In this document: piece after piece, positions 2,955-41,598 of the stretch
Position numbering within the stretch: position 1 is the stretch's first letter
Layout of the letters: each line of letters starts with the position of its first letter
Assembly: GCA_947448795.1 (NCBI GenBank)
Contig: CANFOZ010000002.1
Location: 29,642 to 93,641 of the forward strand
Direction of reading: 5' to 3'
Source of the DNA: Bacteroidota bacterium
GTDB taxonomy: Bacteria > Bacteroidota > Bacteroidia > AKYH767-A > JAHEYN01
Length of the DNA stretch: 64,000 bases
Notes under the pieces: generated by a model
What the model saw: the letters and a program-made list of their open reading frames with translations, nothing else
Told to the model about the DNA's origin: nothing
The model's database searches: none
Position numbers and translations under genes: made by a program

Positions 2955-2956
2955 CA

Positions 2957-6721: not shown

Positions 6722-6723
6722 AC

Positions 6724-7761: not shown

Positions 7762-8388
7762 TTGAACTTGCGAAGTATGCTCTTTGATTTTCTACAGCAG
7801 GTTTCCAATGTTATTGCTCCTTCGCTTCTTTGGCATATGCCACGCAGCGAGCAAGCGGTGTATCTAACTTTTGATGATGGGCCGACCAAAGAAGCAACCG
7901 AATTTGTATTGGATCTTTTAAAATCAAATAATGCCAAAGCAAGTTTTTTTTGCATTGGCGCCAATGTCAATCGATATCCTGAGCTTTACAAAAGAATCTT
8001 GTCAGAAGGTCATCGCGTCGGAAATCATACGATGAATCATCGAAACGGATGGAAGAGTGGTTACGCAGATTACCTTCATGAAGTTAACAAGTGTCGTACT
8101 TGTGTCGACTCTAATCTTTTTCGTCCACCATATGGCAAACTTGGTTTGCGGCAATACTGGGAATTACGCAAAACGTACCGCATTGTTATGTGGGATGTTT
8201 TAAGTCGTGATTTTGAATCAAGCATAACGCCAATGCAGTGTATGCAACGTGTTGAAAAGCGCATTGAGCCAGGTTCCTTGTTGGTTTTTCATGATAGTGA
8301 GCGTTGCTTCCCATTACTTCAAGAAGTGCTGCCGTCAATAATCGAACTTATAAAGCGCCAAGGCTTAGCCATGAAGCCAATTCTTTGA
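7762..8388 (+). CDS. Polysaccharide deacetylase (CE4 / NodB-homology domain).
   Basis: YLTFDDGP motif, an HRVGNHTMNH His motif and RPPYG. Confidence 0.75.
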   Translation: MNLRSMLFDFLQQVSNVIAPSLLWHMPRSEQAVYLTFDDGPTKEATEFVLDLLKSNNAKASFFCIGANVNRYPELYKRILSEGHRVGNHTMNHRNGWKSGYADYLHEVNKCRTCVDSNLFRPPYGKLGLRQYWELRKTYRIVMWDVLSRDFESSITPMQCMQRVEKRIEPGSLLVFHDSERCFPLLQEVLPSIIELIKRQGLAMKPIL

Positions 8389-8527
8389 TACGATAAGATA
8401 GAAGCTATAGCAGATTGAATGCTTTTGTTTACGGCTTCTTAGGCGCGTTTCCGTTTTCTTGTTGATTCCAAAATGTTAACTTTGCAGAACAAATAAAGAG
8501 AAAGTAAAAGCATTCTCTTCGCATATC

Positions 8528-9922: not shown

Positions 9923-11552
9923 TAAACGAATAATTCTATCGCTTTGCTTTTTGCTTATTGGATTTTCTTTATCGGCTCAAGAACTTTTTTATCCGCTTGG
10001 TCGTGATTTAAATACCAAGATAGATGCTGCGATTAACGATCCGGCATTTGATTTTCATACGGATATTCGACCGTATCGAATGGCCGAGTTCGCACAGAAA
10101 ATTAAGCTGGATTCAATTACCTCGACTTTTTATTTCAAGCCACAGAGCAAGCATTTGTGGCGCAATAGTATATGGCGTAGAGACAACTTAATTTATATTC
10201 GGCAAGACATTCTAACCTTAGCAATAGATCCTCAACTGGATCTTGAGTTCAACCAAGATGCTGCTGAACGAGGCATTGTTAATGGGCGTGGTCTTAAACT
10301 AGATGCAACGATTGGTAAGAAGGTGGCTATTACCTCTGCCTTTTATGAAAATCAATCCACCTTCATTAATTATATCGATGCGTATGTGAAGTCTAATGGA
10401 ATTGTTCCAGGTCAAGGGTATTGGAAAAAATTTAAAACATCGGGCTATGATTATGGATACGCTACCGGATCAATTTCCTATTCCCCTTCCAAGTATTTCA
10501 ATTTCAATTTTGGAAACGGAAAGAATTTTATCGGCGATGGGTACAGATCAGTGCTCTTATCCGACAATGCATTCGTCTATCCGTATTTGAAAATTACCAC
10601 CAGTATTGGGAAGATCAAATACATGAACTTGTATACTACAGGTTTGGATATCAATCATCCTAAAGACGCTTTCAATAACGATGATTTTTATCGAAAGAAC
10701 ATGGCGATGCACTACCTCAGCATGAAGTTCGGTAAGCACTATACCTTGGGATTATTTGAAGCGGTAGTGTTTCGCGCCAAGGATTCGACCTCATCGCGGG
10801 GTTATGATTGGAATTACTTAAACCCAGTAATCTTTCTGCGCCCTGTCGAATTTTCTTTGGGTTCTTCTGATAATGCCTTGATGGGCTTGAACCAAAAACT
10901 TTCGATTTCAAAAAGTTTTTTGCTCTACAATCAAATCATGTTGGATGAGTTCAAACTGTCTGAAGTACGAGCGGGAAAGGGTTGGCATGGAAACAAGCAG
11001 GCCTTTCAATTGGGCTTGAAATATTTTAATGTTGCCACACTCAAGAACTTAAACTTGCAGATGGAATTCAATTATGTGCGTCCATACATGTATTCGCATT
11101 ATAACACCTTAGAGAATTACGGACACTACAATCAGCCACTTGCGCATCCGATGGGGGCTAATTTCTGGGAAGCTATTTCTTTTCTGAATTATCGATATAA
11201 ATCCTTTTTCTTTGAAGGAAGAGGTTCGTTTGCCATGAAGGGATATGATATTTATGACAAGACCTCAAAAACATATTTGAATTACGGTAGCGACATATAT
11301 CGCTCGTATTACGACCGGCCCGACTTGGATGGCACCAACAACTATGGTTATTTCATGGCAACGGGACTAACAACAAAAATAATTTATGCGGATTTTCGCG
11401 TTCAATATGTGATTAATCCAAAAACAAATTTGAACTTTGAAGCTGGTGTGACGGAAAGGATCACTAGCGACAATATAAATGGAATGGCTCAACATACCAT
11501 TCTGCACTTCGGCTTGAGGACATCCTTGACCAACGCATACTTTGATTTTTAA
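9906..11552 (+). CDS. Secreted outer-membrane beta-barrel protein, possibly Wzi-like (capsule assembly).
   Basis: Signal peptide MKMRINKRIILSLCFLLIGFSLSAQ. Tyr/Gly-rich amphipathic beta-strand composition and a C-terminal aromatic end (NAYFDF). It overlaps the sugar-transferase gene by 17 nt. The Wzi assignment is an inference. Confidence 0.4.
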   Translation: MKMRINKRIILSLCFLLIGFSLSAQELFYPLGRDLNTKIDAAINDPAFDFHTDIRPYRMAEFAQKIKLDSITSTFYFKPQSKHLWRNSIWRRDNLIYIRQDILTLAIDPQLDLEFNQDAAERGIVNGRGLKLDATIGKKVAITSAFYENQSTFINYIDAYVKSNGIVPGQGYWKKFKTSGYDYGYATGSISYSPSKYFNFNFGNGKNFIGDGYRSVLLSDNAFVYPYLKITTSIGKIKYMNLYTTGLDINHPKDAFNNDDFYRKNMAMHYLSMKFGKHYTLGLFEAVVFRAKDSTSSRGYDWNYLNPVIFLRPVEFSLGSSDNALMGLNQKLSISKSFLLYNQIMLDEFKLSEVRAGKGWHGNKQAFQLGLKYFNVATLKNLNLQMEFNYVRPYMYSHYNTLENYGHYNQPLAHPMGANFWEAISFLNYRYKSFFFEGRGSFAMKGYDIYDKTSKTYLNYGSDIYRSYYDRPDLDGTNNYGYFMATGLTTKIIYADFRVQYVINPKTNLNFEAGVTERITSDNINGMAQHTILHFGLRTSLTNAYFDF

Positions 11553-13747: not shown

Positions 13748-15223
13748 TTAAACTAAATGCACATACGGGGCTAGTCCATGCAAGCCACCTTCACGGCCTA
13801 AACCGCTCTCTTTATAACCTCCAAAAGGAGAGGTTGGATCGAACTTATTATAGGTGTTTGCCCAAACGACACCGGCTTTCAACTGCTTGCTAACCTTGAA
13901 GATCTTCGATCCTTTGTCGGTCCACACACCACCTGATAAACCATACGGTGTGTTGTTTGCTTTTTCGATTACCTCGTCGGCCGTTCGAAAGGTTTGAATG
14001 CTTAGCACAGGGCCGAAAATTTCTTCTTTAACAATCGTACTAGAGGCCGAAACGCCCGTAAACAAAGTAGGTTTAAACCAGAATCCTTTTTTGGGAATGC
14101 TGCAGTCAGCTTGATACATGTCGCCACCTTCAGCGATGCCTTTCTTTACTAAACCCTGAATTTTTTGCAATTGTTCTTTCGAGTTAATTGCTCCGATGTC
14201 GGTGTTTTTATCCAAAGGATCGCCGATGCGTAAGGTGCTCATGCGGTCACGCAGTTTGCGCATCACTTGATCAGCAACGCTTTCCTGCACGAACAGCCGC
14301 GATCCTGCACAACAAACATGGCCTTGATTGAAGAAAATCGCATTGATGATTCCTTCAACGGCTTGGTCAAGGGCAGCATCTTCAAAGATGATGTTAGCCG
14401 CTTTACCACCGAGCTCTAAGGTATAGCGCTTGTCGGTGCCTGCTAAGCTGCGTTGGATAAGCTTGCCTACTTCGGTTGATCCTGTGAAAGCAATCTTATT
14501 CACTAAGGGATGGCGTACTATTGCTGCGCCGGTTTCTCCAGCTCCTGTGATGATGTTCACCACGCCTGGCGGCAAATCAGCTTCTTGAATAAGCTCAGCC
14601 AAAAGCAAAGCGGTGAGTGGTGTTGTTTCGGCAGGTTTGAGAACAACCGTATTTCCTGTTGCTAAAGCAGGTGCTATTTTCCAAGCAGCCATTAGCAAAG
14701 GAAAGTTCCAAGGAATAATTTGCCCTGCAACGCCTAAAGCTTGCGCCTTGCGGCCCGGAAAGGCATAATCCAGCTTGTCGGCCCAGCCAGCATAGTAGAA
14801 AAAGTGTGCCGCTGCTAAAGGAATATCGATGTCTCTTGATTCGCGTATCGGTTTGCCGCCGTTCATGGTTTCTAAGATGGCGAATTCGCGGGCTCGCTCT
14901 TGCAAAATGCGTGCGATACGGTAGATGTATTTTGCCCGCTCTTTACCGGGCAATTTACCCCAAACACCTTTGTATGCGTTGGCTGCAGCTTTTACTGCCT
15001 TGTTTACATCCGACTCGTCAGCCACCGCAACAAGCGCTAATGTTTCCTCCGTCGCCGGATTAATACTAGGCAGATAAATGCCTTTGCTTGGTGCTTGAAA
15101 CTTGCCATCGATGAAAAGCGCATAGCGTTCTTTCAGCTTTACGGGTGCTGTGCTTTCAGGCGCAGGTGCGTACTGGAAGGGCGTTTCGAAATTCAACGCG
15201 TGTTCTTTTTTATCTTTTTTCAT
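13748..15223 (-). CDS. NAD(P)-dependent aldehyde dehydrogenase.
   Basis: 491 aa. Motifs PWNFP, VLKPAE, GSTEVG, ELGGK and FFNQGHVCCAGSR (catalytic Cys). Confidence 0.85.
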   Translation of the reverse strand: MKKDKKEHALNFETPFQYAPAPESTAPVKLKERYALFIDGKFQAPSKGIYLPSINPATEETLALVAVADESDVNKAVKAAANAYKGVWGKLPGKERAKYIYRIARILQERAREFAILETMNGGKPIRESRDIDIPLAAAHFFYYAGWADKLDYAFPGRKAQALGVAGQIIPWNFPLLMAAWKIAPALATGNTVVLKPAETTPLTALLLAELIQEADLPPGVVNIITGAGETGAAIVRHPLVNKIAFTGSTEVGKLIQRSLAGTDKRYTLELGGKAANIIFEDAALDQAVEGIINAIFFNQGHVCCAGSRLFVQESVADQVMRKLRDRMSTLRIGDPLDKNTDIGAINSKEQLQKIQGLVKKGIAEGGDMYQADCSIPKKGFWFKPTLFTGVSASSTIVKEEIFGPVLSIQTFRTADEVIEKANNTPYGLSGGVWTDKGSKIFKVSKQLKAGVVWANTYNKFDPTSPFGGYKESGLGREGGLHGLAPYVHLV

Positions 15224-15239
15224 GCCTTTGATTAGGGAT

Positions 15240-16151
15240 CTAATCTTTTGAGAAATAGTCTATGCTCTGGTATCGTCCAGTTTTTTCTTTGATAAGTTGC
15301 ATCAATAAATCGTTTGCCAAGGAACTCGCACCAAAACGGAAAAGCGATGGAGAAAGCCAATCACTACCTAGTGTTTCGTTCACCATAACTAAGTATTGCA
15401 GTGCGTTCTTTGCAGTACTGATGCCTCCCGCCGGCTTCATGCCGATGCGTTTGCCTGTTGCGTAAAAATGGTCGCGAATAGTTTCTAGCATAACCAAGGT
15501 TACCGGCAGGGTGGCAGCTGGTTGTACTTTGCCTGTCGAGGTTTTAATAAAGTCAGCTCCAGCGCGGATAGCCAATTCGCTCGCTTTGCGAACTTGATCA
15601 AGGGACGATAATTCGCCGGTCTCCAAAATAACTTTTAAGTGGGCCTTGCCGCATGCTTCTTTGACAGCTGCAATTTCGTCGTGCACATAGGCGTATTCAC
15701 CCGCTAGAAAATGTCCGCGCGAAATAACCATGTCGATTTCATCGGCACCTTCTTCCACTGCCCAGTGTGTTTCGGCAAGCTTGATGGCTCGATTCGATTG
15801 TCCGCTAGGAAATGCCGTTGCAACCGAAGCCACTTGGATTTTGGTGCCTTTTAAATGCGATTTGGTAAGTCGCACAAGACTCGGGTAAACACATACTGCA
15901 GCAACTGAAGGGATGTCAAGATCTTCGTGCGGACGAATGGCTTTGTTGCACAATTGTCTGATCTTACCTGGACTGTCTTTGCCTTCTAAAGTGGTAAGGT
16001 CGCACATGCTGAGCGCCATTTTCAATGCCCAAACTTTGCTCTCTTTCTTGATGCTTCGTTTTGTGAGTCGCGATACCCGCTCCTCAACACCAACCTGATC
16101 TACGGTTACGCAGGTCAGGTCTTCGTAAGGCGTTTTTGTATGCTTGTCCAT
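15240..16151 (-). CDS. deoC: Deoxyribose-phosphate aldolase (long form).
   Basis: CDLTTLEG, a Schiff-base Lys region (ADFIKTSTGK) and GMKPAGGIS. Confidence 0.8.
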   Translation of the reverse strand: MDKHTKTPYEDLTCVTVDQVGVEERVSRLTKRSIKKESKVWALKMALSMCDLTTLEGKDSPGKIRQLCNKAIRPHEDLDIPSVAAVCVYPSLVRLTKSHLKGTKIQVASVATAFPSGQSNRAIKLAETHWAVEEGADEIDMVISRGHFLAGEYAYVHDEIAAVKEACGKAHLKVILETGELSSLDQVRKASELAIRAGADFIKTSTGKVQPAATLPVTLVMLETIRDHFYATGKRIGMKPAGGISTAKNALQYLVMVNETLGSDWLSPSLFRFGASSLANDLLMQLIKEKTGRYQSIDYFSKD

Positions 16152-32276: not shown

Positions 32277-33308
32277 CTAAGCCGATTCTCCGCGACTGCG
32301 GTGTATCAGAAAAATAGAACTGCCAAACAACAGAAAGGCAAAGGCCTGATGCAGAACGCCCAACCAAACCGGTACGGCCAATAACAAGGTTGTGATGCCG
32401 AAAATAATTTGAAGCGTCAGCACGCCAAGCACTAGGTGGCTTGCCTGAAGAACAGGTGCGTTTTTTGTCTTGCGGGCCTGTATGTAAAGATAGACAGCAA
32501 GCCCACTTAAAACATAAGCAAGGCATCTGTGTATGAACTGCACGCCAGCTAAGTTTTCTGCGAAGTTTTTCCAAAAAGGATCCATCGCTGTAACCGCTTC
32601 TGCCATGAAGGATCCTTCCATCAAAGGCCAGGTGTTATAGATGCGTCCAGCATGCAAGCCAGCAACAAATGCGCCGTATAAGATTTGCAAAACAACACCT
32701 ACAAAGAAAAACAAGGCCAATTGTGCTATGCGTGCTTCGCCCTTGCTTTTGGTAGTCTTAATCGTGCTTTTCTGATAATGGTCGAGCGCCACCCAGAACG
32801 TGAATCCGAACGTGAAGAAGGCGGTCAGGAGATGTGCTGCCAAACGATAATGACTTACCCGCGGATTATCTACTAAGCCGCTCTTTACCATAAGCCATCC
32901 CAATAATCCTTGTAGTCCGCCAAGACCTAAAATTAAAACGGAACGAATAAGCAGTTGCCTATCGAACCATTTTTTAAATAAAAAATAACCGAAAGGAAGT
33001 ATGAATACCAGGCCAATCATCCGGCCAATCAAGCGGTGTAGGTATTCCCAAAAAAATATGGCTTTGAATCCGCTTAGGTCCATGTCGAAATTCACTTTCT
33101 GAAACTGAGGCGAGGATTGGTACTTGACAAAAGTGTCTTGCCATTGCACATCATTCATAGGAGGCAAGGTGCCCATAATAACATTCCACTCCGTTATGGA
33201 TAGCCCCGATCCCGTCAGCCGCGTGATGCCTCCGATGATAACCATTGAAAAGATCAACACACATCCGGCAATCAACCAGGCGAAAATGAGCTTGTTCTTA
33301 CTTTCCAT
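32277..33308 (-). CDS. ctaA: Heme A synthase (COX15/CtaA).
   Basis: Eight TM helices with conserved His residues in the TM helices (HRLIGRMIG, HLLTAF, HRCLAY). Confidence 0.8.
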   Translation of the reverse strand: MESKNKLIFAWLIAGCVLIFSMVIIGGITRLTGSGLSITEWNVIMGTLPPMNDVQWQDTFVKYQSSPQFQKVNFDMDLSGFKAIFFWEYLHRLIGRMIGLVFILPFGYFLFKKWFDRQLLIRSVLILGLGGLQGLLGWLMVKSGLVDNPRVSHYRLAAHLLTAFFTFGFTFWVALDHYQKSTIKTTKSKGEARIAQLALFFFVGVVLQILYGAFVAGLHAGRIYNTWPLMEGSFMAEAVTAMDPFWKNFAENLAGVQFIHRCLAYVLSGLAVYLYIQARKTKNAPVLQASHLVLGVLTLQIIFGITTLLLAVPVWLGVLHQAFAFLLFGSSIFLIHRSRGESA

Positions 33309-33422
33309 TCGGCAAAGTTAGGAAGCGTTTTAACGCTATGCAATTCCAATGCGATTACCTGAATAAGTCTTTGTTCGATGATGTTGGGATTGCTTACTTT
33401 TGTATGGTAAAAAAGGCCCATC

Positions 33423-35867
33423 ATGAAGATATCCTACAATTGGTTGTTGAATTACCTAGATGCTGCTATAGCTCCAGAAAAAATAGCGGAAGTGCTTACT
33501 GCTTGTGGACTTGAAGTGGAAGGAACCACCGTAGTTGAAGCGGTTCAAGGCGGTTTAAAAGGCATCGTGGTAGGTGAGGTAATGACCTGCGAGCGTCATC
33601 CGAATGCCGATAAACTTTCGCTAACAACCGTTAATGTTGGTGGTGCGGAGCTGCTTAAAATTGTCTGCGGTGCTCCCAATGTGGCTGCTGGACAGAAAGT
33701 GCTCGTTGCTACTGTCGGTGCTACCATGTATCCAGCAAATGGGGAATCTTTTGAAATAAAAAAATCAAAAATACGCGGCGAGGCCTCCGAAGGCATGCTC
33801 TGCGCTGAAGATGAATTAGGCCTCGGCGAATCGCATGCCGGTATCATGGTCCTTGATGCTGCTGCTGCTGTAGGCACTCCCGCTGCTGAATATTTGAAGC
33901 TAAAATCGGATGTGGTGTTTGAGGTTGGACTGACGCCTAACCGCGTCGATGCGGCCTCCCATATTGGTGTGGCCCGCGACTTAGTAGCTGCCATGAATGC
34001 TCGCAATACCGCCCGCATCGCTTTGAAAATGCCTGACCTCATGGCTTTCAAAACAGCTGATATGGCTTCTCCAATTGCCGTTCATGTTGTCAATGCCGAT
34101 GCCTGCCCACGTTATAGTGGAATTCTGGTAAGCGGCGTGACCGTTAAAGATTCTCCCGATTGGCTGCAACAGTCTTTACGGGCGATCGGCGTAAAGCCGA
34201 TCAATAACATTGTAGACATTACCAATTTCGTGCTGCACGAATGCGGTCAACCGCTGCATGCCTTCGATGCATCAGCCATCCGAGAGCATAAAATAGCCGT
34301 CAGCCGTCTTGCTGATGGTACAAAATTTACGACCCTCGATGGTGTGGAAAGAACACTCACGGCGCAGGATCTTATGATTTGCAGTGATGAAAAAGGCAGC
34401 CTCCGTCCACTCTGCCTTGCCGGTGTTTTCGGTGGTCAAGCTTCGGGCGTGAGTGCTAATACAACCAGTGTGTTCATTGAAAGTGCTTATTTCGCGCCAT
34501 CGGGTATACGCCGTTCTTCCAAATACCATGCTCTTAAAACCGATGCGGCTTTCCGCTACGAGCGTGGTGCCGATCCCGAAATAACGCTCTTTGCTTTGAA
34601 ACGCGCCGCGATGCTCATGCAAGAGCTAGCGGGTGGTCGTTTAGAATCGAATCTCTCCGATCATTATCCAGTGCAGGTGATGCCTGCTCAGGTGAATTTT
34701 TCCTTGGCTCGCTTTAACGCGCTATGTGGCACGCAAATAGACGAACATAAAGCCAAAACAATACTCGCCGATCTTGCTATTAAGGTAGATGAAAAGGCCG
34801 TCGATCAATGGCTACTTGAGGTTCCTGCTTTTAAACCCGATGTGTGTCGCGAAGCCGATGTGGCCGAAGAAATCCTGCGCATCGTTGGATACGATCAAAT
34901 ACCATTAAGTGATCGCCTCCGCGCTCCCGTGCTCGTTGCGCCTCGCCCTGATCGTGAAAAATGGATGCACACCCTTGCCGATCAATTAGCCTCTTCCGGA
35001 TTCCTCGAAATAATGACCAACTCGCTGCGTAAAGAACAGCATGAGCATGCGGTTAGATTGCTAAATCCCCTTAGCGAAGAATTGGCTTACATGCGCACCT
35101 CTTTGCTTTTCGGTGGATTGGATGCCATCGCCTACAACCAAAATCGCCGCAATGCCGATCTCCGTTTCTTTGAATTTGGTCGTGTCTATGCTAAAAATGA
35201 CGAGAGTCAAGGCAATAAAGGTCCTGCCGGCTTTCTTGAACAGCAGCGCCTTTCAATCTTTATGACAGGCAGAAAAGAGTCCGAGGGTTGGAACGCTTCT
35301 TCGGATAAAGTTGACTTTTTTCTGCTTAAAGGATATGTCGAAAATCTCTTTGTCCGCTTAGGTTGTCAAAACGAAGTGCAAGCTAAAACCATCGACAGCG
35401 AGCACTTCGCAGAAGCCATCGGATATTTTGTAGGTAAAAAAGAGATAGCTACCATCGGACGCCTCAAACTCGCTGTGCTTAAACAACACGACATTCAATC
35501 GGAAGTGTTCTTCGCCGATATCCGCGTCGATAACCTGTTGTCGATGGCCGGTCGCAAGGATGTGATCTATACCGAAATAACTAAGTTTCCAGAGGTGCGT
35601 CGCGATTTATCGCTCGAGCTGGATCGCGCTGTAAGCTATGCCGATTTGGAGAAACTGTCTTTTGAAACAGAACGAAAGCTACTTAAGAAAGTAAATCTTT
35701 TCGATGTATATCAAGGGGAGAAAATCGCCCAAGACAAGAAATCCTATGCCCTCAGCTTTACTTTGTTAGACGATACACGAACGCTCACCGATAAGGATGT
35801 CGAAAAAGTCATGGCTAAGCTCATGGCGGCTTTCGAATCGCGCCTTGGTGCCTCTTTGCGTAAATAA
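33423..35867 (+). CDS. pheT: Phenylalanine--tRNA ligase beta subunit.
   Basis: 814 aa. Contains tRNA-binding, B3/B4, B5 and C-terminal FDX-ACB domains. MKISYNWLLNYLD is the canonical PheT N-terminus. Confidence 0.9.
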   Translation: MKISYNWLLNYLDAAIAPEKIAEVLTACGLEVEGTTVVEAVQGGLKGIVVGEVMTCERHPNADKLSLTTVNVGGAELLKIVCGAPNVAAGQKVLVATVGATMYPANGESFEIKKSKIRGEASEGMLCAEDELGLGESHAGIMVLDAAAAVGTPAAEYLKLKSDVVFEVGLTPNRVDAASHIGVARDLVAAMNARNTARIALKMPDLMAFKTADMASPIAVHVVNADACPRYSGILVSGVTVKDSPDWLQQSLRAIGVKPINNIVDITNFVLHECGQPLHAFDASAIREHKIAVSRLADGTKFTTLDGVERTLTAQDLMICSDEKGSLRPLCLAGVFGGQASGVSANTTSVFIESAYFAPSGIRRSSKYHALKTDAAFRYERGADPEITLFALKRAAMLMQELAGGRLESNLSDHYPVQVMPAQVNFSLARFNALCGTQIDEHKAKTILADLAIKVDEKAVDQWLLEVPAFKPDVCREADVAEEILRIVGYDQIPLSDRLRAPVLVAPRPDREKWMHTLADQLASSGFLEIMTNSLRKEQHEHAVRLLNPLSEELAYMRTSLLFGGLDAIAYNQNRRNADLRFFEFGRVYAKNDESQGNKGPAGFLEQQRLSIFMTGRKESEGWNASSDKVDFFLLKGYVENLFVRLGCQNEVQAKTIDSEHFAEAIGYFVGKKEIATIGRLKLAVLKQHDIQSEVFFADIRVDNLLSMAGRKDVIYTEITKFPEVRRDLSLELDRAVSYADLEKLSFETERKLLKKVNLFDVYQGEKIAQDKKSYALSFTLLDDTRTLTDKDVEKVMAKLMAAFESRLGASLRK

Positions 35868-35895
35868 ATTCGTATCTTTAATTCGATTGATTGCC

Positions 35896-36270
35896 ATGAA
35901 AAGAGCGCTGCTGATTTTACTCGCTGCACTGTTTCTCTCCACTAGTTCGGGAGTCAGCTTCTATTTGCATTACTGTGGAAAGTCGCTTGATGGAATCAGC
36001 TTAGTAGGAAAGTCGTCTTGCTCTTGCGAGAATGGTAATCAAACTTCCGATTGCTGCCGCGACAAGGTGCATCACATTAAAATAAAGGACCGCTTCGTGG
36101 CAGGTCATCGCCTAGGGCCTAAGTTTTTTCAACAGCGTGTTCTTGTCGCCATGTGTGCTTCTTCAACGCAGGCTCCTATATCGTTTCAGGACTTTCGTCG
36201 AGGATGCTTTGTCTACCGTTTCTGCAATCCACCTAACCGTATAAAAGCGCCTGTTGTGCTGCGTACCTAA
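35896..36270 (+). CDS. Small secreted Cys-rich protein with ordered HYC / CC / PP motifs (HYC_CC_PP-like family).
   Basis: The internal ATG at 35896 gives a 124-aa product with signal peptide MKRALLILLAALFLSTSSGVSF. It is followed by HYCGK, SCSC, DCC and NPPN. The listed 157-aa ORF starts inside pheT, so the shorter start is preferred. Confidence 0.5.
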   Translation: MKRALLILLAALFLSTSSGVSFYLHYCGKSLDGISLVGKSSCSCENGNQTSDCCRDKVHHIKIKDRFVAGHRLGPKFFQQRVLVAMCASSTQAPISFQDFRRGCFVYRFCNPPNRIKAPVVLRT

Positions 36271-36329
36271 TCGGATATTTTTCCATTAGGTCTTATTTTT
36301 TTACGAACAGGTTTCTTTTAGGTTTATTA

Positions 36330-38516
36330 ATGAAAGCACTTTTCTTGGCTTTGATGTTTTGTGCAGCGCAGCAACTGTTTGCGCAGCAAATTTCAGGTTC
36401 GGTTTTTGAAAAAAACCAATCCGAAAAAGAGATTCCCTTGCCCGGTGCAAATGTGTATTGGATCAATACAATCATAGCCACTGTCACGAATGCAGAAGGG
36501 CATTTTGTGTTAAATGGCAAGGATATCCAGGATCCGCGCATCGTTATTAGCTTCACCGGGTATCGCAGCGATACGCTACTTGTAAAGGAAGGGAAAGAAG
36601 TGCGTGTCTTGTTGCAAAATGCGGTATCTCTGAAGGAGGTACAGGTCGTGCAGGATATCTCGCATGCCGCCGACCCATTAAAAATGGAGCAGCTATCATC
36701 ACTTGATCTGAAAAAAGCGGCATGCTGTAATCTTGGTGAAAGCTTTGAATCCAATGCCACGGTTGATGTTACTTACAAGGACGCCGTATCCGGCAGCAAG
36801 GAAATTCAAGTGCTCGGTCTTTCTGGCTCATACACGCAACTGCTAACCGAAAATGCGCCGCTCCTGCAAGGCATCGGTTTAACCTACGGACTCAATAGCA
36901 TTCCGGGTACCCTCATCGATGCCATCAGTGTGGTGAAGGGCCCTGGATCTGTGATTCTAGGTCATCAAAGCATGAGCGGAATGGTGAATGTCGATCTGAA
37001 AGATCCTTTGCGCTCCGATCGGTTTTTCGTTAATCTCTTCCGTGATCAAAATCAACGCAGCGAAGCCAATATTGATCTCGCACACCCCTTTAGCCCGCAC
37101 CTTGGCGCGCTGTTGGCAATTCATGCCGATATGTCACCAATGAAAATGGACCAGAATCGCGACGGTGTCCTGGATATGCCCTTGACCAGCAACATAAGCC
37201 TGCTCAATAAATGGAAATACATAAACAAAGGGTGGATCTCGCAAAACTCCTTTCGCTACATGTCGGAAGAGCGCGCTGGTGGCTCGATTTATGCAATCGA
37301 TGGACGTGCAGATTCTGTCACCTATTTTCAGCAATTGTCAACACATAGAATGGAATTCTACGGTCGAACCGGATATGTAATCCCAGGTGAAAAATACAAC
37401 AGCATCGGTTTTCAATACGGACTTGTTTCACACCTCCAGCAAGGCTTTTATGGATTGACAAACTATACCGGCGAACAGCGCGTAGCTGATTTTCGATTAA
37501 TACACGATATCGCTTGGAGTGCTTCAAATACCTTAAACTCAGGAATAAGTTTTCGACATCTGCTATCAAACGAAAATTTTGGAAAACTAAGCGTCGATAA
37601 AGAAGAAAATGTACCCGGCGCATTTCTTGAAAACACCTACCTCATCGACAAACGTTTTTCGCTCGTTACCGGCCTTCGTGCTGACCTCTTTCAAGAAAGG
37701 ATTTTTATTACGCCTCGGGCCAATGCCAAATGGGCTTTGAATACTACAACAGAGCTGCGTGTAAATGCGGGCACCGGCTGGCGTACTACCGATATCCTCG
37801 CCGAGAATCCGTCCCTATTAGCGAGCCGCAGAACAATAGTATTGCGGTCGAATCTGCGTCCCGAACAAGCCTTGAATCTTGGTGTGAATTTTACCAAACG
37901 CTTTGTGCTTGATTACCGAAAGGGTTCCTTTGAAATAGACGCTTACCGAACCCTTTTCTCCAACAAAATCATTCCGAATTTTGAAAGTGATTCCACCTCC
38001 CGTTTGGTGATTTTTGATAACCTAAAAGAAAAAGCTTTCTCCGACAATATTCAGGTGGAGCTAGCGTATGAAGTTTTTAAAAATTTCCATGTTAAAACGG
38101 CTTATAAATTCCTGCATGTTTACCAGCTTATCAATAGTAAACCGCAAGAACTCTGCTTCATCGCAAAGAATCGTTTTTTCTTGAATTTGTTTTATGAAAG
38201 TTTTAATAGAAAATGGACCTGCAATGCAACGCTGCAGGGCTATGGACGCAAGCGATTGCCTTCTACACTCAATAATCCAATAGCATACCGCATGGATTTG
38301 TATTCGCCTGCATACTCAACCGTCAATGCCCAAATTAATCGTGTCTATAAGAAAATAGAGCTTTACCTTGGTTGCGAAAATATCTTCGACTACCGCCAAA
38401 GCAAAGCACTAATCGATCCTGAACATCCCTACGGCGCTTGGTTTGACACCTCTTTTATCTGGGGGCCACTCGAAGGGCGTAAAGTATATCTTGGTCTTCG
38501 TTATAAAATTAAATAA
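36330..38516 (+). CDS. TonB-dependent outer-membrane receptor with an N-terminal carboxypeptidase-regulatory-like domain.
   Basis: Signal peptide, a CarbopepD_reg-like beta-sandwich (ISGSVFE...GANVYW...TNAEGHFVL), a plug region, and a long Asn/Tyr/Gly-rich barrel. Confidence 0.8.
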   Translation: MKALFLALMFCAAQQLFAQQISGSVFEKNQSEKEIPLPGANVYWINTIIATVTNAEGHFVLNGKDIQDPRIVISFTGYRSDTLLVKEGKEVRVLLQNAVSLKEVQVVQDISHAADPLKMEQLSSLDLKKAACCNLGESFESNATVDVTYKDAVSGSKEIQVLGLSGSYTQLLTENAPLLQGIGLTYGLNSIPGTLIDAISVVKGPGSVILGHQSMSGMVNVDLKDPLRSDRFFVNLFRDQNQRSEANIDLAHPFSPHLGALLAIHADMSPMKMDQNRDGVLDMPLTSNISLLNKWKYINKGWISQNSFRYMSEERAGGSIYAIDGRADSVTYFQQLSTHRMEFYGRTGYVIPGEKYNSIGFQYGLVSHLQQGFYGLTNYTGEQRVADFRLIHDIAWSASNTLNSGISFRHLLSNENFGKLSVDKEENVPGAFLENTYLIDKRFSLVTGLRADLFQERIFITPRANAKWALNTTTELRVNAGTGWRTTDILAENPSLLASRRTIVLRSNLRPEQALNLGVNFTKRFVLDYRKGSFEIDAYRTLFSNKIIPNFESDSTSRLVIFDNLKEKAFSDNIQVELAYEVFKNFHVKTAYKFLHVYQLINSKPQELCFIAKNRFFLNLFYESFNRKWTCNATLQGYGRKRLPSTLNNPIAYRMDLYSPAYSTVNAQINRVYKKIELYLGCENIFDYRQSKALIDPEHPYGAWFDTSFIWGPLEGRKVYLGLRYKIK

Positions 38517-38523
38517 GTACACT

Positions 38524-39111
38524 ATGAAAAACATACTCTTCGTGCTAATCCTTTTATGCGCAAAACTTGCATCGGCGCAAACAGCGTCTAACAAAGTTGA
38601 ATCCTTCGCTGTGGCCGGTAATTGTGGGCAATGCAAGGAGCGCATTGAAAAGACCACCCTCAAAGTTCATGGTGTTAGTGCAGCTACTTGGGAAGAAGCC
38701 ACACAAGTATTGACTGTGAATTTTGATACCCTTATCACAAGTATTGATAAGATTGAACTAGCTATCGCTAAGGTGGGGCACGACACCCCGAAGTACAGGG
38801 CGCAAGACACTAAATACAACACATTGCCTACCTGCTGCTTGTACCCGCGCGAGGCATCATCCACAGGTATTCAAACTGCTCGGTTTACGATCACGGGCAT
38901 GACCTGCGCTGAAGGTTGTGCAAAAGGAATCGAAGGAGCGCTTTACAAACAGAAAGGTGTAAAGTCAAGCGAGGTGAATTTTAATTCACAGATAGCTACC
39001 GTTGTTTTTGATTCCGAAAAAATAAGTAAAGCCGACTTGATTCGTGTAATAGAATCCTTTAACCCAGGAGAAAATGGGGATAGGCACTATCGCGCAGAAG
39101 AGCTAAAATAA
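38524..39111 (+). CDS. Secreted protein with two heavy-metal-associated (HMA)-like domains.
   Basis: Start at the internal ATG 38524 (MKNILFVLILLCAKLASAQ, a signal peptide). Domain 1 has GNCGQC (CxxC). Domain 2 has ITGMTCAEGCAKGIEGAL (a GMTC motif with an atypical CxxxC). Confidence 0.65.
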   Translation: MKNILFVLILLCAKLASAQTASNKVESFAVAGNCGQCKERIEKTTLKVHGVSAATWEEATQVLTVNFDTLITSIDKIELAIAKVGHDTPKYRAQDTKYNTLPTCCLYPREASSTGIQTARFTITGMTCAEGCAKGIEGALYKQKGVKSSEVNFNSQIATVVFDSEKISKADLIRVIESFNPGENGDRHYRAEELK

Positions 39112-39113
39112 AA

Positions 39114-40667
39114 TCAAATCTTGATTTCTTCGTCGCTGGAATTGAAAAAACGATGTTCCAAAAAGTGATAGGAGGAAACCGATTTTATCTTTATGCGCTT
39201 CTTGTATTTGAGCCACCACTTGTTTTGAATAGATGACACAAGTCCTTTGGTTAGATATGCTTCCAAGTAAGGATGTACATGCAAAGTAAGGCTTGGCTCG
39301 TTTTGTTCTTTTAGGAAATAACGAATTGTGTTCTCAAGTTCGTCAATCAGCAAAATACTGGCCTTAACCTCGCCTGTACCTTCACAGGATGGACATTTTT
39401 CGGCCGTCGTTATATTCATCTCAGGACGAACACGCTCGCGGGTGATTTGAACCAATCCGAATTTACTTGGTGGCAGAATAGTATGCTGCGCACGATCACG
39501 CTTCATCTCTTCTTTAAGCTTGATGTAAAGCGCTTTGCGATTCAATGGACTGTGCATGTCTATGAAATCGACAACGATGATGCCGCCCATATCGCGCAGA
39601 CGAAGCTGTCTTGCAATCTCTTTTGCAGCATCCAAATTTACGGCAAGTGCATTGGCTTCTTGGTTGTCACCCGATTTGCTGCGAACACCGCTGTTCACAT
39701 CAATCACATGGAGGGCTTCGGTATGCTCGATAACAAGGTAAGATCCGTTCGGAACAGTAACTGTTTTGCCGAACAAGCTCTTAATCAATTTATCTACTCC
39801 GTATTGCTCAAAAATAGGGAGCTTGCCCTTGTGTAATTTTGCGATGCCCTCTTTCTCTGGCGCAATCGCTTTCAAGTATTTTTTAATCTCTTCGTAAACT
39901 GTAGCATCGTTTACCGTCACCCCTTGAAAATCTTCGCTGAGAAGATCACGCAGGATAGTGGTGGTACGATTCATCTCGCCAAGCACACGCTCCGGCGGTT
40001 TCGCAGTCTTTAAGTTTGTATAAAGTGTCGACCACTTCTCACGAAGGTCAATAATGTCTTTCTCTATTTCAGCCACCTGCTTTCCTTCGGCAGCCGTGCG
40101 CACAATCACCCCAAAATTCTTGGGCTTGATGCTCTGCACCAAACGCTTTAGTCGCGTGCGCTCTTCTGAGCTTTTTATTTTTTGAGAAATTGAAACCTGA
40201 TCGGAAAAGGGGATAAGAACCAAATCACGACCTGCTATGGATAAGTCAGAACTGATGCGAGGACCTTTCGTTGAGATAGGCTCTTTCGCAACCTGAACAA
40301 GCACCCATTGGTTGACAGTAAGGGCTTGTGATATTTTACCTCCCTTGTCTATGTCGGTGTCTAATTGAAAATTGTCCAAAAAGGCATTGTCGCTTTTTTC
40401 ACCCAATACATATTTGGTGTATTTGTGCAACGACTTGACCTGAGGCCCGAGGTCGAGATAATGCAAAAAAGCATCCCGCTCATGCCCTACATCAACAAAT
40501 GCAGCATTAAGGCTTGGGATGAGTTTTTTAACTCTACCCAGGTATATGTCTCCTACGGCAAACTGATTATCCTTGCGTTCCCGGTGCAACTCAGCGAGCT
40601 GCTTGTCTTCCAATAATGCAATGTTAACCTCGGTCGTAGAAGCATCAACAATTAGTTCTTTAACCAC
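39114..40667 (-). CDS. rng: Ribonuclease G/E family endoribonuclease.
   Basis: 517 aa. S1 domain (GDIYLGRVKKLIPSLNAAFVDVG), a DNase-I-like catalytic core and a Zn-link CPSCEGTG. Confidence 0.85.
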   Translation of the reverse strand: MVKELIVDASTTEVNIALLEDKQLAELHRERKDNQFAVGDIYLGRVKKLIPSLNAAFVDVGHERDAFLHYLDLGPQVKSLHKYTKYVLGEKSDNAFLDNFQLDTDIDKGGKISQALTVNQWVLVQVAKEPISTKGPRISSDLSIAGRDLVLIPFSDQVSISQKIKSSEERTRLKRLVQSIKPKNFGVIVRTAAEGKQVAEIEKDIIDLREKWSTLYTNLKTAKPPERVLGEMNRTTTILRDLLSEDFQGVTVNDATVYEEIKKYLKAIAPEKEGIAKLHKGKLPIFEQYGVDKLIKSLFGKTVTVPNGSYLVIEHTEALHVIDVNSGVRSKSGDNQEANALAVNLDAAKEIARQLRLRDMGGIIVVDFIDMHSPLNRKALYIKLKEEMKRDRAQHTILPPSKFGLVQITRERVRPEMNITTAEKCPSCEGTGEVKASILLIDELENTIRYFLKEQNEPSLTLHVHPYLEAYLTKGLVSSIQNKWWLKYKKRIKIKSVSSYHFLEHRFFNSSDEEIKI

Positions 40668-40807
40668 TAGATTTCATAATTAATAGGAATTCGCATTTCC
40701 GGATCTGGAAAAAACAGGTACTCCACAATAAAACACGATGACAGGATCCGAGTAAACGGCAATATCCTAAACCGATAATGGATAATAGATCCGAAAACGG
40801 AATTACA

Positions 40808-40897
40808 AAAAGAAACTATTTCTTCTTATGACGATTCTTCCTTAAGCGTTTTTTACGCTTGTGGGTAGCCATTTTATGTCTTTTTCTCTTCTTTCCG
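40808..40897 (-). CDS. 29-aa highly basic protein resembling ribosomal protein bS22 (AURKAIP1/COX24-like). It is not in the supplied ORF track.
   Basis: The reverse strand encodes MPSGKKRKRHKMATHKRKKRLRKNRHKKK followed by a stop. It is ~70% Lys/Arg/His and resembles mycobacterial bS22 (…[20 protein letters not shown]…). It sits in a 290-nt gap between the TPR gene and rng on the same strand. Confidence 0.5.
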
Positions 40898-40956
40898 CTA
40901 GGCATGGTAAATGTATTTTATAAATTATAAATCGATTATTTCAATTCTATCTCGGA

Positions 40957-41598
40957 TTAACTCGCCGACTGTAGCTTGGCAATCCATGATTCAGCCTCTT
41001 GCTTTATCGAGGGTTCCGTGCTTTTCTCCTTCAATCGCATGAAGATTTCAAGCGCTTTTTTTCGGTTCCCTGTTTCGGCATAAGTTCGTCCGAGGAGCAA
41101 AAGTACATTATTATTTTCAGAATCTAACACAATTACCTTTTCAAAGCGATCTATGGCTTTGTCAAGCTGGCCACTTTGTAGGGATAAAAGACCTAAAAAT
41201 AGTTGCCCGTTCTCGTGATTCGGGTCCGTTTTCACCACTTCTCGAAGCATCATAATGCCGCTCATCGGTTGCGGTGATGCCTCCGCCAAACAAAATCCCA
41301 TCCCTGCTTTGGCATCCAAGTTGCTCGGATCTTGCTGCAACACCTGCTTGTAAACAGCAATGGCCGTTTTGCCCATCGATTCACGTGCCGCGGCATCCTG
41401 TTGCCCCGACAAAAGATCGCGCAAACTATCAGCGGTGTTTAAAAGAAAGGCAACAGAACCGCTTGTCGTTGGAGCTGATTCAGCTGCCGTTTGCTCAGTT
41501 TTTTTAGTATTCGGCTCCTGTGTGGGCAAAAAATACAGCGCTAATGTCAAAAGCAAAGCAGCTCCAAAAGCGCTAAGTAGTAATTTGGTGGAATTCAT
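40957..41598 (-). CDS. Tetratricopeptide-repeat protein with an N-terminal signal/anchor.
   Basis: N-terminal hydrophobic segment, then three or four TPR-like helix pairs (AKAGMGFCLAEA..., GQLFLGLLSLQSGQLDKAIDRFEKV, LLLLGRTYAETGNRKKALEIF). Confidence 0.6.
   Translation of the reverse strand: MNSTKLLLSAFGAALLLTLALYFLPTQEPNTKKTEQTAAESAPTTSGSVAFLLNTADSLRDLLSGQQDAAARESMGKTAIAVYKQVLQQDPSNLDAKAGMGFCLAEASPQPMSGIMMLREVVKTDPNHENGQLFLGLLSLQSGQLDKAIDRFEKVIVLDSENNNVLLLLGRTYAETGNRKKALEIFMRLKEKSTEPSIKQEAESWIAKLQSAS

Follow-up and report, generated by a model that had tools for sequence, protein, structure and literature searches.

We proposed that the three-gene locus described here is an operon for copper import and chaperoning whose first gene encodes a cis-acting, copper-sensing leader peptide of the CutF/CruR kind. 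This reading, in which the regulatory role of the first gene would follow by analogy with those systems, is one to which we give roughly even confidence. It draws on the copper-related neighbours of the family to which the first gene belongs, on a promoter-like box and a terminator-like hairpin that flank this gene, and on Cys pairs and gene fusions that link the receptor with its partner.

The three-gene locus and its conservation

The ORF check of the window, that is, the whole 64,000-nucleotide stretch of Bacteroidota DNA that was analyzed, confirmed three co-oriented genes (table 1), which encode a mini-protein, a TonB-dependent receptor, and an HMA protein. The intergenic gaps, given in the earlier note as 60 and 8 nt, are 59 and 7 nt, which reflects coordinate differences. 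A vicinal Cys-Cys pair is conserved in all three proteins. The pairs of the HMA protein (C104-C105) and of the receptor plug (C132-C133), as well as the hairpin over the stop codon of gene (i), had been missed in the earlier note.

Table 1. Positions of the genes and sequence features of the locus in the window.
Feature	Position	Strand	Remarks
HYC_CC_PP/DUF8199 gene (i)	35896-36270	+	124 aa
TonB-dependent receptor gene (ii)	36330-38516	+	728 aa
HMA protein gene (iii)	38524-39111	+	195 aa
Promoter-like Bacteroidota -7 box, TATCTTTA	35873..35880	+	consensus TAnnTTTG
Putative export signal	mini-protein residues 1-19	+	N-terminal hydrophobic segment
Cys/His mini-domain of mini-protein	H25-Y-C27, C42, C44, C53-C54	+	H25, C27, C53, C54 invariant in family alignment
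HYC codons (H25-Y26-C27)	35968..35976	+	H at residue 25 in nearly all family members
Vicinal Cys pair C53-C54 (DCC)	36052..36057	+	invariant in 142- and 66-sequence alignments
PP motif (P112-P113)	36229..36234	+	57 residues past CC, 11 before C-terminus
Terminator-like hairpin, ACCUAAU.GGA/UCC.AUUAGGU	36265..36291	+	5' arm holds HYC stop codon (36268-36270)
U-rich tract, UCUUAUUUUUUUA	36292..36304	+	directly 3' of hairpin; 75% U in 12 nt past stem
Invariant plug Cys pair C132-C133 (K-A-A-C-C-N-L-G-E-S)	36723..36728	+	36-sequence alignment A1
Signal peptide and N-terminal HMA-CC domain	38524..38862	+	C34-x-x-C37, L-P-T-C104-C105 (LPTCCLY)
Extra C-terminal classical HMA domain (G-M-T-C128-A-E-G-C132)	38863..39111	+	lineage-specific

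The receptor is made up of a signal peptide, a CarbopepD_reg-like periplasmic N-domain, a divergent plug, and a 22-strand barrel. Its matches to the Pfam models CarbopepD_reg_2 (residues 21-106), Plug (120-217; PF07715, 31.8 bits), and the TonB_dep_Rec barrel (PF00593, 66.5 bits) were all above the cut-offs, which bore out the domain assignment of the earlier note. A sequence search returned 1341 homologues, and Foldseek matched the structure to TonB-dependent transporters (TBDTs) in general, including OprC, ZnuD, BtuB, and Cir, with E about 1e-20. In the AF2 model (pLDDT 76.7), the barrel was confident and the plug (residues 99-194) was below 50. The alignment of 36 receptors showed that, besides C132-C133, H265 and a D-x-N-x-D-G-x-x-D motif are invariant in the family. 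Given the low-confidence model of the plug, its Cys pair is only a putative metal site, which is a weak point of the import step proposed below.

The HMA protein, with a signal-peptide-like N-terminus, scored 72.9 bits against PF00403 over two stretches, the best of which covers residues 121-178; the two HMA-like folds described earlier were thus recovered, with C34-G-Q-C37 in the N-domain and a variant CxxxC motif (C128-A-E-G-C132) in the C-domain. Across an alignment of 52 receptor-linked HMA proteins, the CxxC motif and LPxCC are conserved, and the C-terminal HMA domain occurs only in the window protein and at one other locus (L001). By sequence, then, it is the HMA-CC domain that is conserved as the receptor's partner. 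In 17 of the 80 fetched loci this domain is joined to the N-terminus of the receptor, and because this receptor N-terminus is periplasmic, the HMA partner is periplasmic as well.

The motif K[AS]ACCNL[GSA]E of the receptor clade was matched at least 600 times in species-representative genomes. The module is conserved in hundreds of Bacteroidota species and in Ignavibacteria-like relatives. An HYC homologue was located upstream on the same strand at 69 of the 80 receptor loci, the remainder being mostly truncated contigs or divergent look-alikes, and an HMA partner (upstream, downstream, or fused) was present in 58 of the 69 complete loci (about 84%). Since the triad is found again and again throughout the phylum, chance can hardly account for its arrangement, and the conservation of gene neighbourhood, which the earlier note had suggested testing, is strong.

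The HYC family and its flanking signals

The mini-protein scored 41.8 bits against the NCBIfam model NF047658, "HYC_CC_PP family protein" (cut-off 28, E = 1.4e-10), and a relative with 99% identity (P0001) carries Pfam PF26622, DUF8199; the family named after these motifs in the earlier note was therefore the right one. A sequence search yielded 475 cluster representatives at E <= 1e-3, and the literature search found no papers naming HYC_CC_PP or DUF8199. The 124-aa protein contains, in order, H25-Y-C27, C42-S-C44, D52-C53-C54, and P112-P113, of which H25, C27, C53, C54, P112, and P113 are the invariant residues of the HYC_CC_PP alignment. Signal peptides were judged from sequence and, for the mini-protein, from an AF2 helix at residues 2-17; its N-terminus runs from MKR through an 11-residue hydrophobic stretch to S-S-G19, with small residues at -3 and -1, consistent with the export signal claimed previously, either cleaved or kept as a signal anchor.

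Among 210 non-redundant members, the spacer between CC and PP has a median of 55 aa (IQR 53-57), and it is about 57 aa long in the window protein; its length is tightly kept and its sequence is not conserved. The PP motif lies about 16 residues from the C-terminus (14-17 in most members) and is followed across the family by a conserved tail, PLYxLHxxFRI or ...FYG, which is shortened in the window protein (…PPNRIKAPVVLRT). Approximately 14% of members lack PP, and one RND-linked subfamily has VP, PS, or VS in its place with the tail behind it still conserved. AF2 predicted a small, moderately confident sheet (residues 21-27/30-35/54-60, pLDDT 60-76), and residues 64-124, with pLDDT below 50, are predicted to be disordered.

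The genomic contexts of HYC genes were drawn from a context-blind motif scan and contig look-ups. HYC genes head Cus-type efflux operons with CusB and RND pumps, which are assigned to CusA/CzcA at subfamily level only, as well as operons of a copper-type P-type ATPase (CopA; the P1B ATPase matched TIGR01511 at 612 bits, cut-off 397), a CueO-like multicopper oxidase, or MbnP/MbnH; further members of such operons are DUF3347, HMBD, and HMA proteins. An HMA or HMBD protein is very often found beside HYC genes, in import and efflux operons alike, and throughout the contexts examined, the HYC gene is the first of the operon and on the same strand as the downstream genes. The mini-protein family is not specific to the receptor triad. 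A thiophilic metal, as the earlier note supposed, is indicated for the triad, and the wider HYC contexts point to copper; the assignment to copper derives from the neighbours of paralogous HYC members and not from the window receptor itself.

Two signals flank the HYC gene. The -7 box is located 16-23 nt 5' of the start codon, inside the 28-nt gap after pheT, and has A at the final G of the consensus. A TAnnTTTG box within 50 nt upstream was found for 63% of HYC genes; for other genes the share was 13-15%, and for those following HYC it was 1%. The hairpin in the window has an MFE of -10.7 kcal/mol (z = -4.2), and none of 200 shuffles was as stable. Terminator-like hairpins followed 59 of 122 HYC genes (48%) compared with 76 of 405 control junctions (19%), a four-fold enrichment (p = 3e-10).

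Proposed mechanism and alternative explanations

Comparative sequence analysis showed that transcription starts at the -7 box just 5' of the HYC gene and that the downstream genes, without promoter boxes of their own, depend on read-through of the hairpin and U-tract past the HYC stop codon. By analogy with CruR and CutF, the HYC product may be a nascent-chain copper sensor that is exported co-translationally, whose His/Cys cluster (HYC, CxC, and CC) would emerge on the periplasmic side while the C-terminal segment about 55 residues behind, comprising PP and the hydrophobic tail, would still be held in the ribosome. Copper binding would alter how the ribosome pauses at the end of the HYC ORF or is released from it, which would decide whether the hairpin forms, and the structural genes would thereby be expressed in cis according to copper status; with an uptake receptor, copper would be expected to act as a repressing signal, as with CruR. 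As its domains, invariant residues, and fusions suggest, the receptor may import copper or a copper chelate via the vicinal Cys pair of the plug, and the metal may be passed to the periplasmic HMA-CC chaperone (CxxC and CC) by thiol ligand exchange. An inner-membrane importer would be unneeded if the copper is destined for cuproenzymes of the periplasm or the membrane.

The operon promoter on the HYC gene, the hairpin after it, and the disordered C-terminal half of the protein fit a cis-acting leader, and the fixed positions of H25 and CC, together with a spacer of fixed length and unconserved sequence, are those of a sensor-like protein. Several observations count against a leader. Homology to DUF2946, the family of CruR, was not detectable by sequence, and some members lack PP; in addition, a ribosome stalled at a PP about 16 residues from the end (3 in CruR) would not touch the hairpin, and the tail of the window protein is shortened. 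Some of the same data would be explained if HYC_CC_PP were instead a trans-acting small Cu(I)-binding chaperone or thiol-redox partner, signal-anchored or secreted, that cooperates with periplasmic HMA proteins in any copper system (import, efflux, or oxidation), the hairpin being a partial terminator that raises the small protein above the downstream products. We consider this possible but clearly less probable than a leader. The invariant His/Cys residues and the moderately confident three-stranded mini-domain would be expected of a stable functional small protein, as would the conserved tail, which arrest at PP alone does not need. The members without PP and the frequent co-occurrence with HMA/HMBD in import and efflux operons point the same way, and the promoter and hairpin arrangement equally fits differential expression, since the hairpin may do no more than fix how far the output of an abundant small protein exceeds that of the genes behind it. 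However, disorder is predicted for half of the protein, which is unconserved yet length-fixed, as one would typically see in a spacer and not in a folded domain, and the gene is always first irrespective of operon function. Moreover, chaperones were the initial guess for the analogous proteins of Proteobacteria, which turned out to be cis-acting regulators with a short lifetime (PMC9426467).

The earlier note had read the locus as a dedicated outer-membrane capture relay, with the mini-protein as a metallophore-like ligand or an obligatory, receptor-specific third station. Export signals and conserved vicinal Cys pairs in all three proteins, and tight linkage of the genes in most genomes, agree with such a relay, and the hand-off from the receptor to the HMA protein, in keeping with the recurrent fusions, was retained in our proposal. 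The part assigned to the mini-protein was not, because its family heads RND efflux, multicopper oxidase, MbnPH, and P-type ATPase operons without a TonB receptor, which also makes a metallophore-like receptor ligand unlikely. Maturation and export genes for a peptide metallophore are absent, and the receptor fusions place the HMA partner in the periplasm. Bacteroidota secrete proteins beyond the outer membrane by means of T9SS or lipoprotein export signals, and a sequence reading found neither in the mini-protein. Taken together, we regard the dedicated relay as highly improbable. The substrate has a somewhat better, though still small, chance of being another soft metal (Zn, Cd, Ag, Hg, Co, or Ni) or a non-metal that reacts with thiols, the copper-linked paralogues having diverged in function. 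Neither HMA domains nor CusA/CzcA-type pumps are specific to copper, vicinal Cys pairs are a hallmark of Hg(II) relays (MerT and MerA), CutF-like clusters of other metal specificity exist, and a CDF-type transporter adjoins the receptor at one locus (L070). On the other hand, the multicopper oxidase, MbnP/MbnH, and copper-type P1B ATPase are copper-specific neighbours of the HYC family, active TonB-driven uptake of purely toxic metals is implausible, and all-Cys/His soft ligands with a CxxC HMA domain represent classical Cu(I) chemistry.

Returning to the leader peptide, we tentatively extended the proposal to the family as a whole, in which case HYC_CC_PP/DUF8199 proteins would be Bacteroidota-wide nascent-peptide copper sensors, independent of DUF2946, that gate an intrinsic-terminator attenuator and here control an undescribed copper import route; we think this extension has well under an even chance. 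The hairpin that overlaps or abuts the stop codon would be masked while a ribosome finishes, or pauses within, the conserved C-terminal segment. Cu(I) would travel from the receptor plug to an HMA-CC chaperone, tethered or free, by passing from one vicinal Cys pair to another. If true, metal-sensing attenuation by a leader peptide would be seen here for the first time in a phylum that is largely without Shine-Dalgarno-based translational control.

Comparison with known systems

The earlier statement that no role had been proposed for such a gene combination was too strong, since CruR (PMC9426467) and CutF-like proteins (PMC9973294) are small exported Cys/PP proteins encoded upstream of TonB-dependent transporters. 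For the structural genes, the copper TBDTs OprC and NosA (PDB 6FOK and 6Z8S) share the 22-strand fold and, presumably, copper import and soft-ligand metal binding with the window receptor. The identity to OprC in the structural alignment is about 14%, however, and the OprC-type NCBIfam model was not among the 14 weak NCBIfam hits of the receptor; OprC has a CxxxM-HxM site, whereas the receptor clade has an invariant CC in a divergent plug, a CarbopepD_reg N-domain, and an HMA partner or fusion. The Mer Hg(II) relay (MerP CxxC to MerT vicinal CC to MerA C-terminal CC) likewise combines an HMA-fold CxxC with successive vicinal Cys pairs, and this arrangement on successive proteins suggests a hand-off by thiol ligand exchange. 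It differs in membrane, direction, and components; MerT and MerA are absent at the locus, and the HMA protein did not reach the cut-off of either the MerP or the MerTP model.

For the leader, one point of comparison is the CutF-CutO system of Rhodobacter capsulatus, together with a census of CutF-like proteins in 29 clusters, with many Bacteroidota entries and TonB-like neighbours (Ozturk et al. 2023, PMC9973294; 10.1101/2022.11.11.516240), and CutF is rapidly degraded (10.1101/2022.11.11.516240). The census rule asks for a length under 150 aa, a signal peptide, PP no further than 15 residues from the C-terminal end, and a next gene that follows on the same strand within less than 1000 nt. The window protein falls within it (124 aa, a putative signal peptide, PP at the 13th/12th residues from the C-terminus, and the receptor 59 nt downstream), unlike most HYC members, whose PP at 14-17 residues from the end lies outside this filter. 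Both CutF and HYC genes have a stem-loop before the next gene, but that of CutF hides the Shine-Dalgarno sequence, whereas the HYC hairpin resembles a transcription terminator. Bacteroidota are generally without Shine-Dalgarno-led initiation. CzcI of Cupriavidus metallidurans pMOL30, a CutF-like protein that heads czcCBA, has R24-Y-C26 after the signal peptide, where the mini-protein has H25-Y-C27, then a second Cys motif and a C-terminal R-A-P, and is also encoded by the first gene of a metal RND operon. CzcI is nonetheless His-rich, lacks PP, and belongs to a Zn/Co/Cd system; hhalign gave a probability of 13.7%, with the match confined to the N-terminus.

A further parallel is the operon of CruR (DUF2946), bfrG, and bp2921 in Bordetella pertussis, in which bfrG encodes a copper-repressed TBDT (Roy et al. 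2022, PMC9426467). CruR contains a CXXC motif followed by a fixed spacer of 45 aa (45 +/- 2) and RAPP 3 residues from the C-terminus, and its family heads copper operons of many kinds, including those with MbnPH-like genes; the published homologue list includes no Bacteroidota (PMC9426467). DUF2946 (PF11162) had no match in the window protein, nor in any of 66 HYC family members even at E up to 10. The motifs (HYC/CxC/CC and PP, N-PP in the window, versus CXXC and RAPP), the spacer (55 aa, 57 in the window, versus 45), and the distance from PP to the C-terminus (about 16 with a conserved tail, 11 in the window, versus 3) all differ. The intergenic region after HYC is short (median 86 nt) and AU-rich with an intrinsic-terminator-like hairpin, whereas that of CruR is 162 nt, GC-rich, and subject to Rho-dependent termination; the operon partner is an HMA protein with HYC and a PepSY_TM protein with CruR. 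What the two have in common is a small first gene for an exported Cys-motif protein with a C-terminal Pro-Pro at a fixed distance and a TBDT encoded next, and both, predicted to be poorly structured, head varied copper operons.

Conservation of the triad and of its receptor clade

The three co-oriented genes claimed by the earlier note were borne out by the ORF listing and the sequence, with intergenic gaps of 59 nt between the small gene (HYC) and the TonB-dependent receptor gene and of 7 nt between the receptor gene and the HMA gene. The mini-protein matched the HYC_CC_PP family protein model (NCBIfam NF047658, 41.8 bits against a cut-off of 28), and its close relatives matched DUF8199 (Pfam PF26622); the receptor consisted of CarbopepD_reg_2, plug, and barrel domains, and the HMA protein contained two HMA stretches. 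Because the surrounding genes were housekeeping genes (tgt, LptF/G, COX15/CtaA, pheT, RNase E/G, a TPR protein, HU, mutY, ssb, and a CNNM/CorC protein), we regarded the triad as a self-contained unit. An Rfam scan (E <= 1) of 33000-41000 revealed no riboswitch or known RNA. The COX15/CtaA heme A synthase gene (361 bits) lies 2.6 kb upstream of the triad and implies a copper-dependent aa3-type oxidase, a plausible candidate consumer of imported copper.

Coordinates of features in the window and in relative loci (each relative locus in its own coordinates)
Sequence	Feature	Position	Strand	Basis or detail
Window	COX15/CtaA gene	32277-33308	-	
Window	pheT, upstream flank	33423-35867	+	ORF listing
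Window	-7 box, TATCTTTA	35873-35880		sequence read
Window	HYC gene, 124 aa	35896-36270	+	ORF listing and sequence
Window	Hairpin	36265-36291		HYC stop codon in 5' arm, UCUUAUUUUUUUA next
Window	Receptor gene, 728 aa	36330-38516	+	ORF listing and sequence
Window	Receptor Cys pair	36723-36728		
Window	Receptor H265 to D282	37122-37175		
Window	HMA gene, 195 aa	38524-39111	+	ORF listing and sequence
Window	RNase E/G gene, downstream flank	39114-40667	-	ORF listing
L009	HYC-like small protein	5461-5868		
L051	HYC-like small protein	5448-5903		
L070	His-rich protein	5009-5908		
L088	VTT/DedA-family protein	about 7475-8155		
L085	VTT/DedA-family protein	9455-10042		
L051	HMA with Cys-rich extension	8239-8709		
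L054	HMA with Cys-rich extension	5438-5980		
L055	HMA with Cys-rich extension	4342-4893		
L081	RND ORF pair	6984-8285 / 8278-10215		
L082	RND ORF pair	6816-8120 / 8083-10056		
L113	Tandem HYC-headed operons	3378-8592; 8678-11499		
L022	HYC_CC_PP genes, back to back	2222-2656; 2725-3117	-; +	
L175	czcI of pMOL30	15177-15524		

Homologues of the receptor numbered 1341 at E <= 1e-10, and an alignment of 36 receptor homologues showed that K-A-A-C132-C133-N-L-G-E-S is invariant at the start of the plug. When one genome per species was scanned with this alignment, at least 600 matches to this clade were obtained, 599 of those listed being confirmed, and the best 80 of these loci represented all major orders of Bacteroidota together with Ignavibacteria and Melioribacteraceae. 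Further invariants of the clade were H265 and D274-x-N-x-D-G-x-x-D282, the latter resembling a calcium-binding loop, and the canonical plug motifs PGV, IRG, and LIDG were all replaced. In the AF2 receptor model the plug (residues 99-194) had a pLDDT below 50, too low to place the Cys pair or read its geometry; Foldseek matches did not discriminate the substrate class of the receptor, and a sequence search of the PDB returned no close solved relative.

Upstream HYC genes were sought in the best 80 receptor loci with an HMM of the small-protein family, and a same-strand homologue was found in 69 of them. Among the 72 loci whose upstream sequence extended to 900 nt or more, HYC lay no more than three genes upstream in 63, and in four others it was located farther upstream or had been missed by gene calling; L009 and L051 carried HYC-like small Cys/PP proteins that the HMM did not match, and HYC was truly absent in only three of the 72. 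The L009 and L051 proteins matched the family in architecture, with a signal, Cys clusters, PP, and a hydrophobic C-terminus, and carried QLC or YFC in place of HYC; since they escaped the family HMM, the HYC signature does not cover the whole family. An HMA partner was present in 58 of the 69 loci having both flanks. In L070, the place of HYC directly upstream of the receptor was taken by a His-rich protein similar to cation diffusion facilitators. In one lineage (L088, L090, L097, L139, and L085), a VTT/DedA-family membrane protein of ~226 aa recurred after HYC-receptor-HMA, a possible inner-membrane component of the system.

HYC and the receptor flanked the HMA gene in 21 loci; it followed the receptor in 24, and it was fused in the others. 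Common to 52 aligned partners were a signal peptide, an HMA domain with CxxC, and an extension of the type 'A..AY..LPxCC' (together, HMA-CC); in the window, this conserved partner corresponds to the N-terminal domain of the HMA protein (C34xxC37, C104-C105), and the second, classical HMA domain (GMTCAEGC) occurred only in the window and L001 among the 52. In 17 loci HMA-CC was fused to the N-terminus of the receptor in the order signal peptide, HMA-CC, CarbopepD_reg, plug, and barrel. In TonB-dependent transporters, N-terminal extensions lie in the periplasm; the fusions therefore put HMA-CC there, beside the plug. As Rosetta-stone evidence, they argue for a direct functional link between HMA-CC and the receptor. 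A vicinal Cys pair is conserved in all three proteins. Some receptor-linked HMA proteins (L051, L054, and L055) bore long, Cys-rich, low-complexity extensions with repeated CC/CxxC together with K, S, and G, possibly serving metal storage or buffering.

The small-protein family and its operon contexts

A word-indexed search with the single mini-protein as query returned only two relatives, and an exhaustive search was then used, which yielded 475 cluster representatives, nearly all of 120-135 aa. The invariant or near-invariant positions were G19, H25, (Y26), C27, C42, C44, C53, C54, K62, and P112-P113, with His at residue 25 in almost all members and an H-to-CC distance of 30 residues (IQR 29-31). 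The tail of ~16 residues after PP was conserved as P-[LIV]-[YF]-x-L-[HN]-x-x-F-R-I or ...F-x-[FY]-Y-G, and its type was identical in receptor-linked and other operons; the tail of the window mini-protein is five residues short of this consensus. PP was absent in ~14% of members and changed to VP, PS, or VS in one RND-linked subfamily. Weak Pfam matches to DUF6769 in five of 66 members (best E = 0.012) and to DUF6660 in one were also observed; both could represent related small-protein families that are uncharacterised.

We addressed the operon contexts by a context-blind scan of metagenome contigs with the degenerate DNA pattern ATGAAR...CAYTAYTGYGGN...TGYTGYAARGAY, which samples only members with MK..HYCG..CCKD. 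In every one of the 76 HYC genes recovered, same-strand genes followed, and approximately one-third of the operons were HYC-receptor-HMA or HYC-HMA-receptor. HYC also headed operons encoding HMA with a CusA/CzcA-type RND, CusB, and OEP; HMBD and AraC with a copper-type P1B ATPase (TIGR01511, 612 bits); T9SS-tailed proteins with a CueO-like multicopper oxidase; DUF3347 with MbnP and MbnH; and YncE-like propellers. The multicopper oxidase, MbnPH, and CopA-type ATPase neighbours point to copper as the probable metal. Since HYC heads both import and export operons, it probably serves neither as a substrate nor as a relay component dedicated to a single receptor. Thus, the reading in the earlier note of a metal capture relay of three secreted proteins held in part: the thiophilic metal agreed with the copper-linked contexts of the family and the receptor-to-HMA hand-off with the 17 fusions, but the dedicated role given to the mini-protein was misassigned, as it heads varied copper operons. 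At the level of sequence, the comparative analysis showed a conserved operon, copper-linked contexts, HMA-receptor fusions, and Cys-pair invariants.

Several arrangements within these contexts were also recorded. In efflux operons that HYC heads in different genomes (L081, L082, L083, and L084), the CusA/CzcA-type RND was split into two overlapping ORFs (~434 and ~650 aa) that jointly span the full 1051-position model, which could reflect either a pump that is truly split or programmed frameshifting. Two HYC-headed operons stood in tandem on the single contig L113, the first with four T9SS-tailed proteins and a multicopper oxidase and the second with HMA, DUF3347, and an HMBD protein, and each of the two back-to-back HYC genes of L022 presumably heads its own operon.

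Promoter, hairpin, and the proposed leader function

A k-mer search upstream of the HYC genes revealed a single enriched motif, the Bacteroidota -7 box TAnnTTTG at 11-30 nt before the start codon, and no palindromic operator. The box preceded 63% of HYC genes, compared with 13-15% of other genes and 1% of the genes directly after HYC (n = 121); therefore, the genes behind HYC rely on its promoter. Immediately past the HYC stop codon, 59 of 122 loci had a terminator-like hairpin (dG <= -7, then a stretch with 50% U or more), as against 76 of 405 same-strand junctions taken as controls from these loci (odds ratio 4, p = 3e-10); the 5' end of the HYC hairpins lay at a median of 16 nt beyond the stop codon. 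These real control junctions were used in place of a whole-junction MFE z-score (median -2.6), which was dropped because shuffling mixes coding and intergenic composition. The hairpin of the window (dG -10.7, z = -4.2, none of 200 shuffles as stable) was significant only as the 44-nt hairpin, and the 78-nt window fold was not (z = -0.98); a generic sigma-70 and terminator scan missed both this hairpin and the -7 box. By comparison of sequences, the analysis showed a fixed spacer length and a grammar of promoter, leader ORF, hairpin, and structural genes.

We propose that the receptor would import copper or a copper chelate, that Cu(I) would pass from the Cys pair of the plug to the HMA-CC chaperone, and that the HYC protein would act in cis as a nascent-chain copper sensor. 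A ribosome positioned on the last HYC codons would block hairpin formation, which is the logic of a leader-peptide attenuator; the same promoter and hairpin layout could simply lower the expression of distal genes. That this is a conserved copper-related operon with the small gene as a generic header appears very probable to us, and we give the full model, leader function included, roughly even chances. A role of HYC in trans as a small chaperone seems rather doubtful. In the AF2 model of the mini-protein (49 sequences), a confident N-terminal helix (residues 2-17) is followed by a small three-stranded sheet that bears the His/Cys residues (pLDDT 60-76), and residues 64-124 have a pLDDT below 50; the stretch between CC and PP contains no conserved residue, but its length is tight (median 55, IQR 53-57, n = 210 non-redundant).

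Bacteroidota are major gut, soil, and marine bacteria, and to our knowledge their copper handling is poorly understood; we know of neither an outer-membrane copper importer nor a copper-sensing post-transcriptional mechanism demonstrated in this phylum. The locus provides a concrete, phylum-wide candidate for the former, in the invariant Cys-Cys plug clade with its fused or adjacent HMA-CC chaperone, and a candidate for the latter, in the named but uncharacterised DUF8199. The grammar of DUF8199 (promoter, fixed-spacer leader ORF, terminator-like hairpin, and varied copper genes) makes a leader-peptide attenuator directly testable, and the locus would supply a rule for annotating hundreds of genes now labelled 'hypothetical protein' or 'TonB-dependent receptor'.

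Relation to known copper leader peptides

Literature searches found no mention of HYC_CC_PP or DUF8199 and, with TonB, copper, HMA, and Bacteroidetes as terms, no description of the receptor/HMA-CC clade; a Bizionia copper paper was set aside, since it concerns an OprC-like receptor. CzcI of pMOL30 carries R-Y-C at residues 24-26 after the signal peptide, the position of H25-Y-C27 in the HYC family, followed by CxxC and a C-terminal RAP, so that both share a layout of signal, x-Y-C, Cys motif, and RAP. This hints at a very remote relationship or convergence; hhalign of the HYC family against CzcI was insignificant (13.7% probability, match confined to the N-terminus), and no SilD was identified in the part of pMOL30 examined.

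CruR of Bordetella pertussis, a DUF2946 protein with an export signal, CXXC, and a C-terminal RAPP arrest motif 45 +/- 2 residues away, is encoded at the head of the bfrG TonB-transporter operon, which copper represses, and acts in cis via Rho-dependent termination, and its family heads TBDT, PepSY, PCuAC, Sco, CopC, and MbnPH operons (PMC9426467). A Pfam scan of 66 HYC members gave no DUF2946 match, which places them outside that family. CutF of Rhodobacter capsulatus controls the multicopper oxidase CutO by co-translational export, with CxxxC, a Pro-rich C-terminus, and a stem-loop. A census counted 5334 CutF-like proteins, taking as criteria a length below 150 aa, a signal peptide, a PP among the final 15 residues, and a neighbouring gene on the same strand; 19% came from Bacteroidota, and the neighbours seen most often were RND components and TonB-like proteins (10.1101/2022.11.11.516240 = PMC9973294). 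The window mini-protein, with its predicted signal peptide, fits this rule-based definition and is a candidate CutF-like protein. Taken together, the closest known systems to the window operon are CruR-BfrG and the CutF-like leaders, from which the HYC family differs in its motifs, the position and context of PP, the terminator-like RNA element, the phylum, and the partner proteins; it would carry the CruR/CutF paradigm into a second phylum, where the RNA read-out differs.
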